Below are positions 20,781 through 50,993 of a DNA stretch of 64,000 bases, piece by piece; the first letter of the stretch is position 1, and every line of letters begins with the position of its first letter. Under the pieces are notes generated by a model, which was not told the DNA's origin, searched no databases, and saw nothing but the letters and a program-made list of their open reading frames with translations. Origin of the DNA: Eledone cirrhosa (lineage: Eukaryota); contig CAXHJY010001439.1 in assembly GCA_964016885.1 (NCBI GenBank), positions 275,682-339,681 of the forward strand. The letters run 5' to 3'. Both the position numbers and the translations under genes were made by a program.

Positions 20781-21801
20781 AGATAGAAAAATGCGTACAG
20801 CAAAAAAAAGTAATATTGTTGGAATATAAACCTTTAAAAATACAGGACAAGAAACTAAAATAAAACTTTAAAAGAATAGGACAAGAAACTAAGATAAAAC
20901 TTTAAAGAATTGGACAAGAAATAAAAAATTTTACAATAATATTAGTGACAAAATTTTTTTATTCGTTTCCTGTGCTATGCCCCAGTATCTTCTTGATTAG
21001 TGCATAATAATTGTCATGCTCTCATTGTGCGTTGCCCCTGAGCGGTTGGTTCTGGTTGGGGTTGGTTGGCTGAGCAGTTCTGCTCCGTCAGAATGACCAG
21101 TGCAAGAGGAATTGGCCGATGCAGCTGCAGGTCTCCTCCAAGAATGCACTTCTGGTCCCGCAACACCAGACGAAGATGGAGAAGACGACCGGGACAAGAT
21201 GTCGACTCTGACCACCGACTAAGGCACCTCCCTCAACCACCGGTCCTCCCTCCCTCTGTCCCGTCATCCCTCCAGTCCTCCTGCTCCCCCTTCCTGTACC
21301 AGAAAGCTGTGGCACGCATTCATCTGGACTGCCGGACTTGAACTCAAGGACAAGATGCAAGGAGAAGATGGACGGGTTGGTCAAGATCAAGGATGAGCGG
21401 GACGACAAGACCGTCCGCTGCTGCTCAAGATCTGTGCTCATGGGCCCATGGGTCCATTCACATTATGCATGACACATGAGGCGTGTCGCCGAATGATGAA
21501 ATAGGGGTATGGTTATGGCCCAATTGGTGTTCAAACCAGGATCAAATGATCCCCCCGGTCTGACGACGACGTCTGAATGTGGAACCCAGAGCCTATGAAT
21601 GTGGAACTCGATTTTTTACCAATAAAAATTTTGCCACTAATATTATTGTAAAATTTTTTATTTCTTGTCCAATTCTTTAAAGTTTTATCTTAGTTTCTTG
21701 TCCTATTCTTTTAAAGTTTTATTTTAGTTTCTTGTCCTGTATTTTTAAAGGTTTATATTCCAACAATATTACTTTTTTTTGCTGTACGCATTTTTCTATC
21801 T
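20781..21801. repeat. ~180-bp inverted repeat arms (20781-20963 and 21621-21801) around a ~660-bp GC-richer spacer; right arm abuts (TA)n
   Basis: The arms are near-perfect reverse complements and carry three internal GGACAAGAAA subrepeats. Confidence 0.9.
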
Positions 21802-21804
21802 GGT

Positions 21805-22277
21805 ATAACATATGTATATATATATATATATATATATAATATGTGTATATATATAATATATATATATATATATATATATATATATATATATAATATATAA
21901 TATATATGTATATATATATATATATATATATATATATATAATATATATGTATATATATAATATATATATATATAATATATGTGTATATATATAATATATA
22001 TATATATATATATATATATATAATATATGTGTATATATATAATATATATATATAATACATGTGTATATATATAATATATATAATATACATATATATAATA
22101 TATGTGTATATATATAATATATATATATGTATATATATATATATATAATACATGTGTATATATATAATATATATAATATACATATATATAATATATGTGT
22201 ATATATATAATATATATGTATATATATATATATATATATATATATATATATATATATATATATACACACATATATAC
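21805..22277. repeat. Interrupted (TA)n tract
   Basis: Direct inspection. Confidence 0.95.
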
Positions 22278-22699
22278 TTCGTCTTTAATTGTTGATCTGA
22301 AAACGTGTGTTGAAACATATATTGTTATACTTTGGGAAGGTCATTCTGCGAACAAAAACACACATCTGCTGAATTTCACTTCAATTTATTACAAATTTCC
22401 AGTTGGTTGGTCTAGTATCCGGATGGTTGTTATTTTGTTTATTGTTGAAGCTCTTTCGTCGCACATTCTATGACGTCCTCAGTGACTAATTTATCACACT
22501 GTGTCTCTCTGAGAGGCGAGTGTATTTTCATTGGCAACATGAACATCCCAAAACATAACCCCCCCCACACCCACACACACCCACACACACACACACACAC
22601 ATATTGTTTTACTTTGGCAGGTTTATGTTGCCAATAAAAATATACGTATCTCCCTCAAATAAGGCTCAGTATATATATAAATATTATACACATTAATAT

Positions 22700-23840
22700 A
22701 CAATCATCGACACAACGACCACAACCACGACCATTACCACCACTACCACCACCAACAACAACAACAACTACAACAACAAAAACAACAGCAACAACACCAC
22801 CATCATTATCAACACAATTACCAAAATCAATATCACCCTTACACCACCACCACCACCACCACCACCACCACCACCGCCAACACCAACACAACCACCACCA
22901 CCACCACCACCACTACCATCACCACCAGCACCAGCACCACCACCAACACTACCATCACTACCATCACCACCACCACCACTACCATCACCACCACCACCAC
23001 CACCACCTCCATCAACAACAACTACAACAACAAAAACAACAGCAACAACACCACCATCATCACCAACACAATCACCAAAATCAATATCACCCTTACAACC
23101 ACCACCACCACCACCACCACCGCCAACACCAACACAACCATCACCACCACCACCACCACCACCACTACCATCACCACCAGCACCACCACCACCACCACCT
23201 CCACCAGCACCACCACCACCACCACCACCTACTCCACCACCAAAAACACCACCACCACCACCACTACCATCACCACCAGTACCACCACCACCACCACTAC
23301 CATCACCACCAGCACCACCACCACCTCCACCACCACCAGCACCACCACCACTACCATCACCAGCACCACCACCACCACCTCCACCACCACTACCACCACC
23401 ACCACCACCACCGCTACCACCACCAGCACCACTACCACCACCACCACCACTACCACCACCAGCACCACTACCACCACCACCACCACCACTACCACATAAC
23501 TGTTACTGTGATGTTACACTCAATTTCGCAACGTGTTTTTTTAACATTTACGATTCACAGTTTTTAAAAGCAAAACGTTGTTAGTTTGCGGAGTTAATTG
23601 AGAGAACGGGAACATGGCAACAATGGAAGCAATAATAGCAGCAACAACAACAGCAATACCAATAGCAGTTACAACAACAGCAACAACAACATCAACCACA
23701 GCAATAGCAACAACAACAACAACAACGACAATAGCAACAACAACAGCCACAGCAATAGCAACAGCAGCAACAACAACTAATGCAGCAATCAATAGTAGCA
23801 AACAACTACAACAATACCAACAGCAGCAACATCAACAACC
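22700..23840. repeat. (ACC)n and (AAC/AGC)n arrays with an internal ~260-bp duplication
   Basis: CCAAAATCAATATCACCCTTACA occurs at about 22821 and 23075. Confidence 0.9.
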
Positions 23841-23872
23841 GCATACCGTAGCTGTATGTCATATATCAAATC

Positions 23873-23947
23873 ATATATTTTGTCTGATGAGGACGTACTG
23901 AAAAAAACAACACAGTACCTTTGAAATATATATATAATAAAGTATAT
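23873..23947 (+). ncRNA. Type I hammerhead ribozyme motif (HHR-1)
   Basis: ATATATTTTGT-CTGATGA-(GGACGTACTG..CAGTACCTTT)-GAAA-TATATATA-TA-ATAAAGTATAT. Stem I has 11 bp (2 GU); stem II has 9 of 10 pairs. Confidence 0.7.
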
Positions 23948-24068
23948 ATTTTGATTATGAGAATATTTTTGATTTGTTAATATTTTGAGATATCCGGGAG
24001 CTTCCAACAGAAATGGTCGCATTCTCTAAGGGTATGTCAATATTTATTTATAAAGCTGCTCTATATTA

Positions 24069-24133
24069 TATTTTATCTGATGAAAGCACACCATAATTTA
24101 ACTTGATGTCCTTGAAATATGTATAATGAAATA
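24069..24133 (+). ncRNA. Type I hammerhead ribozyme motif (HHR-2), in tandem with HHR-1
   Basis: TATTTTAT-CTGATGA-(AAG.ACA...TGT.CTT)-GAAA-TATGTA-TA-ATGAAATA. Stem I has 8 bp (1 GU). Confidence 0.65.
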
Positions 24134-24164
24134 AATATGGTTTTATAAATATAGTTTCCATTTG

Positions 24165-48920: not shown

Positions 48921-49285
48921 ATAAATATATATATATACACACACACACATATATATATATATATACATATATATGTATACATATATACATATATATATAT
49001 ATACATATATATACATATATATATATATATATATAAATGTAAGTATGTACGTATATGTACATACATATATGTATACAGACGTACAGTAGCATGCATATAT
49101 ACATATATATATATATATATATACATATATACATACAGGTACACATACATATATGCACGTATCAGTTTAGCGGACGCTTATTATAACGCCGCTTTGTTCG
49201 TTTGTAAACAAACTGAACAGCCTGAATTTATGCCATACGGTGTTAAGACAACCACGTCACCTTTTTGTTCAACACTGACACAGGA

Positions 49286-49328
49286 ACGATGTACTAGTTT
49301 CAAGCTTGTTAGCTATCATCAGCACCGT
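49286..49328 (-). ncRNA. Minimal type I hammerhead (HHR-7)
   Basis: Reverse complement of 49669-49711. Confidence 0.85.
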
Positions 49329-49668
49329 ATACCCTTCTGCCAGATAGTTGAACGTTCGAAAGTATATACTTTCCTTATGAAAATTAACGGCTGAGCAGCC
49401 TAATTTGCATATCGAGTGAGTTAAATCGGTCAGGCATACCGAAAACGATAAGTTGAAAATAAAATGAAAACGAAATTTCATTTCTCACTCTTAGTATGGC
49501 ACTTACTTAAATGTAAGTATGTACGTATACGTACATACATATATGTATACAGACGTACAGTAGCATGCATATATAAATATATATATATATACATATATAC
49601 ATACAGGTACACATACATATATGCACGTATCAGTTTAGCGGACGTTCAACTATCTGGCAGAAGGATAT

Positions 49669-49711
49669 ACGGTGCTGATGATAGCTAACAAGCTTGAAAC
49701 TAGTACATCGT
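49669..49711 (+). ncRNA. Minimal type I hammerhead (HHR-8)
   Basis: ACGGTG-CTGATGA-T-AGCT-AACA-AGCT-T-GAAA-CTAG-TA-CATCGT; palindromic loop III and GUA cleavage triplet. Confidence 0.85.
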
Positions 49712-50136
49712 TCCTGTGTCAGTGTTGAACAAAAAGGTGACGTGGTTGCCTTAACACCGTATGGCATAAATTCAGGCTGTTCAGTTTGTTTACAAACGAA
49801 CAAAGCGGCGTTATAATTAGCGTCCGCTAAACTGATACGTGCATATATGTATGTGTACCTGTATGTATATATGTATATATATATATATGTATATATGCAT
49901 GCTACTGTACGTCTGTATACATATATGTATGTACGTATACGTACATACTTACATTTAAGTAAGTGCCATACTAAGAGTGAGAAATAAAATTTCGTTTTCA
50001 TTTTATTTTCAACTTATATATATATATATATATATATATATATATATATATATATATATATATATATACATATATATGTATACATATATACATATATATA
50101 CATATATATATATATATATATATATATATATATATA

Positions 50137-50364
50137 GTGAAGTCGTGTGGCTGAGTGGTTGGATTCGCAATCGTAAGGTTGTGAGTTCGATTCCTGGACC
50201 CGGCGATGCGTTATGTCCTTGAGCAAGACACTTTATTTCACGTTGCTCCTTCTACCTGGAGTTGCGACCGATAGATAGTATTAGCAATTGGAAAGACCAA
50301 CGGAAACATTGTTCCCTCGGTCCGATTTGACGAAAGTCGATCGTTCCTTAAAAAAAAAAAAAAA
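50137..50364 (+). mobile_element. Full-length tRNA-derived SINE family A with poly(A) tail
   Basis: A-box TGGCTGAGTGG, B-box GTTCGATTCC, TGTCCTTGAGCAAGACACTT, A-tail. Confidence 0.9.
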
Positions 50365-50471
50365 TATATATATATATATATATATATATATATATATATA
50401 TATTTGCTCAACTGGCATACCGCCTATGGACGCATCCAAGCAACCTTACTACAAATATATATATATATATA

Positions 50472-50840
50472 TAAATCAAGAAAGAAGAGTGACATGGTTT
50501 GCTATACAATAAGGGCTTTATTCACATTGCTGACAATGGTTTCTCTGAACTGGTAGGTCTAGAGATCGCTACCCGCCTTTTTTTGCGTCAATCGATCATC
50601 AATACTTTGTTATAACCAGTCAATTCATCAGAGCTAGCGAGAATTGTATTTGCAAACCATGTCACTCTTCTTTCTTGATTTATTATTGCTCCAAGTGTAA
50701 ACTACATAGAAATCACCGCGTACTCGCAGCATCACTATGGAAACGTCTTGTTGAGTCAAACTTAACCAAGCGTTAATACTATCCACTACTAACTGGACTA
50801 CATCTAAGTGGACTACCTATAACAATAATTTGTTTTCCCG
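50472..50840. mobile_element. Head-to-head insertion with ~40-bp inverted arms (50472-50510 and 50643-50682) between (TA)n tracts
   Basis: AAATCAAGAAAGAAGAGTGACATGGTTTGC and its reverse complement; hammerhead-like motif between the arms. Confidence 0.65.
50527..50636 (-). ncRNA. Hammerhead-like motif with long stem II and weak stem I (HHR-9)
   Basis: Reverse complement reads GCT-CTGATGA-(..ACTGGT...ACCAGT..)-GAAA-CCATTG-TC-AGC, then AATAAA. Confidence 0.5.
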
Positions 50841-50956
50841 TATATATATATATATATATATATATATATATATATATATATATATATATATATATATATA
50901 TATATATATATATATTGTCATAGAAATGGTGTAAGGTACACTTTTACTGAAAATGA

Positions 50957-50993
50957 AACTTTGAAAAGCTACCCATAGCGAAACCGGTTAGTT
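50957..50993 (+). ncRNA. Minimal hammerhead with U3-A8 covariant core (HHR-10)
   Basis: AACT-TTGAAAA-GCTA-CCCA-TAGC-GAAA-CCGG-TT-AGTT. Confidence 0.55.

Follow-up and report, generated by a model that had tools for sequence, protein, structure and literature searches.

Penelope-like elements (PLEs) that code for a GIY-YIG endonuclease (EN+ PLEs) leave partial tandems, inverted 5'-truncated copies joined head to head and a tail at one insertion end, and their pseudo-long terminal repeats (pLTRs) hold motifs resembling TATA boxes and initiators (PMC3846280, PMC8557442 and PMC11167929). Among the C-terminal EN+ PLEs, the Hydra clade of Craig et al. (2021, PMC8557442), which includes Hydra-1_Obim of Octopus bimaculoides, has (TA)n targets and carries hammerhead ribozymes in its pLTRs; Repbase Penelope-13_HM, of the same clade, comes with an inverted 5'-truncated copy, and the origin of such inverted ends is named there as an open question. 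We analyzed a 64,000-nucleotide stretch of Eledone cirrhosa (the window: contig CAXHJY010001439.1, positions 275,682 to 339,681 of the forward strand, assembly GCA_964016885.1, 3.0 Gb; coordinates below are positions in this window) in which five head-to-head palindromes end in (TA)n, and found that the two arms of such palindromes end at two different, family-specific sites.

Each family represented in the window has two fixed 3' ends downstream of its hammerhead, a short one (X) and a tailed one (Y), which lie 132 nt apart in family B, 171 in D, 77 in A, 58 in C, 89 in G, 96 in F1 and 91 in F2. When neighboring minus- and plus-strand ends were paired automatically in all examined loci, 54 of 57 pairs from six families joined one X to one Y (21/21 in B, 13/13 in D, 4/4 in A, 8/9 in C, 4/4 in F1 and 4/6 in F2); two of the other three were separate insertions and the third was a low-complexity false match. 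The end signatures were strict and missed some real pairs, such as the family A locus of the window, which is X+Y by alignment. Family B ends numbered 38 Y and 31 X overall, so about half of the pairs would be expected to be of the same type by chance. With an unbiased B query placed upstream of both ends, 20 of 40 matches formed 10 divergent pairs, all X+Y. In available accounts of EN+ PLEs the tails measure 30 to 40 bp and are optional or "often" one-sided, whereas here they are one-sided in all 54 true pairs.

Two further properties of family B bear on how the arms arise. Among 13 long pairs traced, the X arm reached further 5' in six, the Y arm in six, and one was ambiguous; such independence of arm lengths departs from the published EN+ PLE accounts as far as these are accessible. 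The two arms also share a haplotype: at 13 informative sites they carry the same bases in 9 of 10 pairs, compared with 4 of 90 cross-pairs (permutation p ~5e-5), a concordance that rules out two different source RNAs for each palindrome. Inverted 5'-truncated copies, one-end tails, (TA)n targets, opposite-strand hammerheads and retrozymes as PLE derivatives are already published. The X+Y rule, the independent arm lengths and the shared haplotype go beyond that picture, and in the literature outside subscription papers we found no statement of strict X+Y pairing or of twin priming for PLEs.

Together, the X/Y pairing, arm lengths that run either way and the shared haplotype favor twin target-primed reverse transcription over fold-back. 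With a probability of roughly 60%, we read the palindromes as 5'-truncated head-to-head insertions, in which reverse transcriptase (RT) was likely primed by the 3'-OH on either side of a (TA)n break and started at two different internal sites. The GIY-YIG domain would cut both strands within (TA)n, and an RT dimer would begin its two complementary DNAs (cDNAs) at different sites, X for one and Y for the other, with either a shared transcript or transcripts from a single source locus as template. The two cDNAs would stop independently and then join 5' to 5', leaving both 3' ends outward in (TA)n around a 5'-to-5' junction. An Anolis (Poseidon) element described in PMC11167929 cuts and extends both strands in vitro, has two internal RT starts that delimit its tail, and is a predicted dimer for which hammerhead cleavage is dispensable; its start site showed no strand difference.

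The main rival, which we consider unlikely, is fold-back, the published reading of head-to-head junctions and tails (PMC3846280, PMC8557442): one strand would prime an inverted arm on itself and, as proposed for Penelope, the endonuclease would resolve the hairpin by cutting its strands at staggered positions, so that only one side keeps the tail. Fold-back would yield a shared haplotype without a second template, and some short family B junctions do lie at or beside an AT-rich palindrome. Starting from a Y-primed strand, however, it should always leave the Y arm longer, and the X arm is the longer one in 6 of the 12 clear long B pairs and in many D pairs. X-longer pairs can arise if the hairpin is resolved by staggered cuts that take either polarity, but these cuts would then have to span 58 to 171 nt, and the long-pair junctions that could be resolved show overlaps of 0 to 2 nt or short inserts instead of hairpin stems.

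Where the arms begin suggests how the shortest palindromes arise under twin priming. In family B, TCA+1TT marks the start of 13 of 46 arms, 5 to 9 nt upstream of the hammerhead core. In F1, 13 of 18 arms start around TCA+1CT, 59 to 72 nt upstream of the core, and in D the start of 7 of 32 arms falls at a TCA+1TT located 12 to 15 nt upstream, which has a TATA at about -31. The F1 offset makes the pile-up independent of the edge of the ribozyme and fits run-off at a transcription start. Templates cut at the hammerhead site were considered and rejected, since arm starts in B and D do not cluster where cleavage is predicted. Because arm starts gather at initiator-like motifs, palindromes of 200 to 600 bp are likely run-off copies of the pLTR at the 5' end of the transcript; the hammerhead would then be carried along with the pLTR, and the majority of stumps would be non-functional from the moment they insert. 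A broader proposal, for which our confidence is evenly divided, is that twin priming is obligate in PLEs, with a dimer priming both ends of a (TA)n break and making one X and one Y start per source transcript, so that all two-armed insertions carry one of each, and that pLTR run-off has scattered a few hundred thousand stumps through the genome, above the 126,247 hammerheads reported for the axolotl (PMC7229834).

Several points weigh against the twin-priming reading. The samples are best-scoring matches rather than random ones, one B search required one arm to end at Y, and the six leading D matches had been selected for a window-like junction, which inflates the D pile-up. Loci examined for the other families gave too few arms (n = 2 to 10) to confirm pile-ups, family A has no clean initiator, and transcription starts are placed by motifs only. 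For one RNA to be copied twice across a shared stretch, strand displacement or a multimeric transcript would be needed, and gene conversion between arms could also account for the shared haplotype. No autonomous partner was found for A, C, F1, F2 or G, the upstream sequences of F1, F2 and G not having been followed, and the clade of B and D is assigned from motifs rather than from an RT tree. Minimum-free-energy folding around the X and Y sites of family B revealed no obvious shared structure.

The 36.2- and 50.5-kb loci are, judged by motifs, 3' stumps of autonomous Hydra-clade PLEs, families B and D. All 40 scored matches of family B were 100% identical. In longer copies the sequence continues upstream without interruption, first as some 4 kb of low-complexity untranslated region (UTR) and then as an open reading frame (ORF), and one array consists of 6,662-bp tandem units with an intact 813-aa ORF. 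A protein search, in which 122 of 47,535 candidates were scored, returned many open frames of 830 codons. The AlphaFold model of the protein has telomerase RTs as its best PDB matches (Foldseek, E 3e-9), and a profile search matched a retron RT (E 0.0014). Structurally, its C-terminal domain matches I-TevI (Z 8.8, root-mean-square deviation 2.3, 89 aligned), EndoII (Z 7.3) and UvrC (Z 6.4), and sub-threshold PF01541 matches occur in 7 of 32 homologues. Pfam found neither RT nor GIY-YIG in the protein itself, neither the protein alone nor an endonuclease alignment had a significant match in sequence searches of PDB, and a BFVD structure search returned generic polymerases only. Family D is the 3' end of a second element, whose ORF ends about 850 nt upstream of the hammerhead and carries RWK, DKT and CNCHLPDRC, its RT being recognized by motifs only. 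The first-pass annotation, made from the sequence alone, had suggested a Penelope-like origin, and it is borne out by the continuation of B and D arms into RT and GIY-YIG ORFs.

As in the Hydra clade described in PMC8557442, a single RT and GIY-YIG ORF has the RWK-type, DKT, CxCX5C and CxxC/CxH motifs (RWR37, DKT115, C673-C681, and C771 and C799 in the B protein) and lacks CCHH, the internal Cys pair of which is present in 0 of 77 aligned proteins; the pLTR hammerheads likewise often have U on both sides of the base of stem II. Family B shows a pLTR in partial tandem with a hammerhead inside it, X and Y ends, and (TA)n insertion. The Neptune clade was ruled out, as B has CxCX5C and DKT, not CX2-5CxxC and DKG, and no CCHH. 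Listed Hydra consensuses measure 1.1 to 3.0 kb, in contrast to the 6,662-bp B unit; the clade is called "generally short (<3 kb)", a wording that makes the trait nonexclusive, and the excess reflects the long low-complexity 3' UTR. The Hydra hammerheads listed have loops of 3 to 10 nt, whereas stem II here reaches 116 nt and tails reach 58 to 171 nt, and the expansion in this genome is very large and young. The B and D copies in the window are the 5'-truncated and inverted short end of a size range reaching palindromes of about 10 kb. The TA/TG-rich 3' UTR of family B is copied with the element, which spreads simple repeats and fresh (TA)n targets, and it in turn hosts insertions of other elements. 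Near some examined loci lie PLE ORFs of another type, with a CxxxxCxxC-like linker, so the hammerhead families counted below need not all belong to the Hydra clade.

A second and far less probable alternative is that all loci are independent non-autonomous palindromic ribozyme retroelements, each palindrome propagating as a unit transcribed from both sides. In its favor, families A and C have no long ORF and occur in tandem arrays, and the window lacks a PLE ORF, as had been noted at first pass: 119 PLE proteins gave no tblastn match. Families B and D, however, continue into RT and endonuclease ORFs. Moreover, junction positions differ from copy to copy and many copies have no inverted arm, so the palindrome is made by each insertion event rather than being a fixed structure of its family. 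The initial description of these families as non-autonomous thus holds for A and C and fails for B and D. That the palindromes are fold-back artefacts of sequencing or assembly is highly improbable, despite arms of 94 to 99% identity set in AT-rich repeats on a small unplaced contig, since their ends fall at two family-specific sites and never in the flanks, arms differ in short interspersed element (SINE) insertions and point changes, chromosome-scale contigs show the same plan (in 600 kb, same-family pairs were head to head in 6 cases and tail to tail in none), and contigs of public run X1, which may be the source sample and whose library type is unrecorded, show 15 other family C arm junctions.

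On their sequence, families A and C are retrozyme-like non-coding hammerhead units that share the PLE insertion signature, and they are likely mobilized in trans. The A unit is 1.32 kb (1,324-bp period) and tandem at some loci; the C unit is about 0.47 to 0.5 kb (468-bp period), with 36 units within one 20-kb stretch. Their longest ATG-initiated ORFs are 81 and 74 aa, respectively, and tblastn of the units against PLE proteins gave nothing. In being non-coding, in tandem, with one type I hammerhead per unit and beside autonomous PLEs, they resemble non-LTR (long terminal repeat) retrozymes (PMC7229834; bioRxiv 10.64898/2026.07.22.740005). They differ from metazoan retrozymes, for which the accessible accounts give 150 to 450 bp, in unit length and in the X/Y inverted insertion signature. 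At one locus a PLE ORF is followed after 0.6 kb by family C; we do not regard this as a link, (TA)23 and unrelated DNA standing between them. Family C also forms satellite-like arrays, for example at C4:212.91-212.93 Mb; its summed depth in the X1 contigs is near 10^6, and 65 to 71% of its words are present in each of four other organisms. Of 35 distinct family A arms, 13, both window arms among them, carry a tRNA-like SINE in one ATT-rich site immediately 3' of the hammerhead; differing 5' junctions and duplications mark these as independent insertions. TTAT usually follows the SINE 3' end, which suggests priming on the ATT repeats; ARAGORN found no tRNA.

Within the window, masked self-BLAST placed inverted arms at 24.70-24.95, 36.34-36.76, 49.16-49.83, 50.47-50.68, 45.65-45.80 and 20.78-21.81 kb, the outer arms of the 24.7-kb locus extending to 24382 and 25076 (Table 1). 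The loci share no similarity with one another, and their arms diverge from a central junction, just as the first-pass annotation had described for four of them. It had likewise proposed (TA)n as the target, with which the ends of its four palindromes and of the one at 45.65 kb agree. A type I hammerhead descriptor gave 5 matches in positions 20781 to 50993 against a mean of 0.055 (maximum, 2) in 200 block dinucleotide shuffles, and a looser one gave 9 against 0.17 (maximum, 2), an excess over shuffled sequence. Eight of the nine belong to genome-wide families; the ninth, at 39322, is low scoring and unassigned. Two motifs escaped the descriptor, at 50631(-), where stem III is mutated, and 45721(-), a variant core. 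The total is ten in about 27 kb (23.9 to 50.6 kb), the number estimated at first, with hammerheads on both strands at 24.7, 36.5 and 49.3/49.7 kb, as also claimed, and on one strand at 50.6 kb. An Rfam scan returned no hammerhead among the best 150 of 358 matches, nearly all to low-complexity microRNA models. The expectation that the arms are multicopy was likewise correct, four families having 935, 1171, 1291 and 2804 first-look candidates genome-wide (40 scored per family); F1 has 1214. Passed over at first were the 45.65-kb palindrome, the single-arm stumps and the asymmetry of the outer ends.

Table 1. Hammerhead-bearing and related arms in the window
Feature	Positions	Strand	Details
Family F1 single-arm stump	23845-23988	+	Type I hammerhead, core CUGAUGA at 23884; predicted cleavage after 23936
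Family F2 single-arm stump, long (Y) end	23992-24371	+	Hammerhead 24077-24125; split by tRNA-like SINE piece at 24166-24268
Family A left arm, tailed (Y) end at 24382	24382-24822	-	Hammerhead 24771-24708; SINE at ~24504-24690
Family A right arm, short (X) end at 25076	24823-25076	+	Hammerhead core 24875; 5'-truncated SINE at ~24950-25031
Family B left arm, tailed (Y) end	36200-36548	-	Hammerhead 36541-36407, stem II of 116 nt
Family B right arm, short (X) end	36550-36761	+	Hammerhead 36557-36691; end 132 nt shorter than Y
Family G palindrome	45654-45887	.	Left arm (-) with short end and hammerhead-like motif, core CAGAAGA at 45721-45715; right arm (+) with tailed end at ~45887
Family C left arm, short (X) end near 49035	49035-49635	-	More than one unit; hammerhead 49322-49292
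Family C right arm, tailed (Y) end at 50015	49636-50015	+	Hammerhead 49675-49705
Family D short (X) arm	50472-50643	-	Core 50631-50625, stem II of 81 nt; stem III mutated in this copy
Family D tailed (Y) arm	50643-50840	+	Starts 3' of the hammerhead, hence none on this arm

The window, on a small unplaced contig, is denser in hammerheads than the genome average and not different in kind. In 1.59 Mb of examined loci, 485 matches fell into 24 families (at least two loci each) and 25 single-locus clusters. The 24 families keep the core and three stems despite unlike stem sequences, with stem II ranging from 12 to 116 nt. Stem III is palindromic in 16 of them, in line with the first-pass expectation, and they thus resemble the minimal type I hammerheads of PLEs, which also sit mostly in truncated copies and include opposite-strand pairs 100 to 700 bp apart (Cervera and de la Peña 2014, PMC4209133). 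Single-strand folding misses the active fold for most motifs, as expected for a dimer-type stem III. Unlike the hammerheads of that survey, those found here do not conserve G10.1-C11.1; the base preceding GAAA is U in 13, C in 6 and A in 5 of 24 families. A U-U base of stem II is listed for Hydra hammerheads in supplement S2 of PMC8557442 and is tolerated according to PMC3088659.

Family G differs further from the PMC4209133 hammerheads in its CAGAAGA core (U4A), found in 21 of 24 pattern matches, overlapping loci being counted; we met no description of this variant in the accessible hammerhead literature searched. Its motif has a predicted 5- to 6-bp stem III and, if active, could work as a monomer. 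Outside the window, another abundant small palindromic family in (TA)n has a similar apparent two-end asymmetry.

In 60 evenly spaced 10-kb regions of the genome, 74 matches occurred in 29 regions, compared with a mean of 4.3 in 10 shuffles. The net density is 116 per Mb (95% bootstrap interval, 60 to 193), or 86 (54 to 123) when one array is omitted, and extrapolation from this 600-kb sample gives 3.5 or, without that array, 2.6x10^5 hammerheads per genome. PMC4209133 gives 2,000 to 9,000 per genome, far below this estimate, which would rank among the highest reported. We found no hammerhead survey of an octopus in the literature, and the accessible text of PMC13282606 counts active Penelope-like families in O. 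vulgaris without mention of clades or hammerheads.

Very young, near-identical families with long tails made the two ends distinguishable and countable. The pairing rule, together with the independence of arm lengths and the common haplotype, separates twin priming from fold-back, so that the mechanism of PLE inversion becomes testable, and intact source copies are now located. The hammerhead load suggests that Hydra-clade elements are a major, under-classified class of repeats in this genome. Tens of thousands of inverted repeats could, we infer, feed double-stranded RNA pathways such as A-to-I editing.

A possible fifth hammerhead palindrome had been suggested at 20.8 to 21.8 kb. It is ruled out: there is no hammerhead, and the inverted repeat is internal to a fixed-ended element at 19831-21807. 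That element begins with TC, ends with CTGG and lies between A and T, termini that we take to be Helitron-like. It is non-coding, with a 5' hairpin and variable internal deletions, and its 3' part is 98 to 100% identical in the 40 best matches.

Elsewhere in the window, a long interspersed element (LINE) at 27005-32550 (+) encodes ORF1, an apurinic/apyrimidinic endonuclease, RT and zf-RVT, with a single stop at 31572. An inverted, 5'-truncated relative, about 85% identical, lies 12 kb away at 43540-45430 (-). Simple repeats are abundant throughout, and large strand-biased satellites occupy 1-13575 and 51501-64000, with units of 9 bp (about 1,520 copies) and 48/143 bp.

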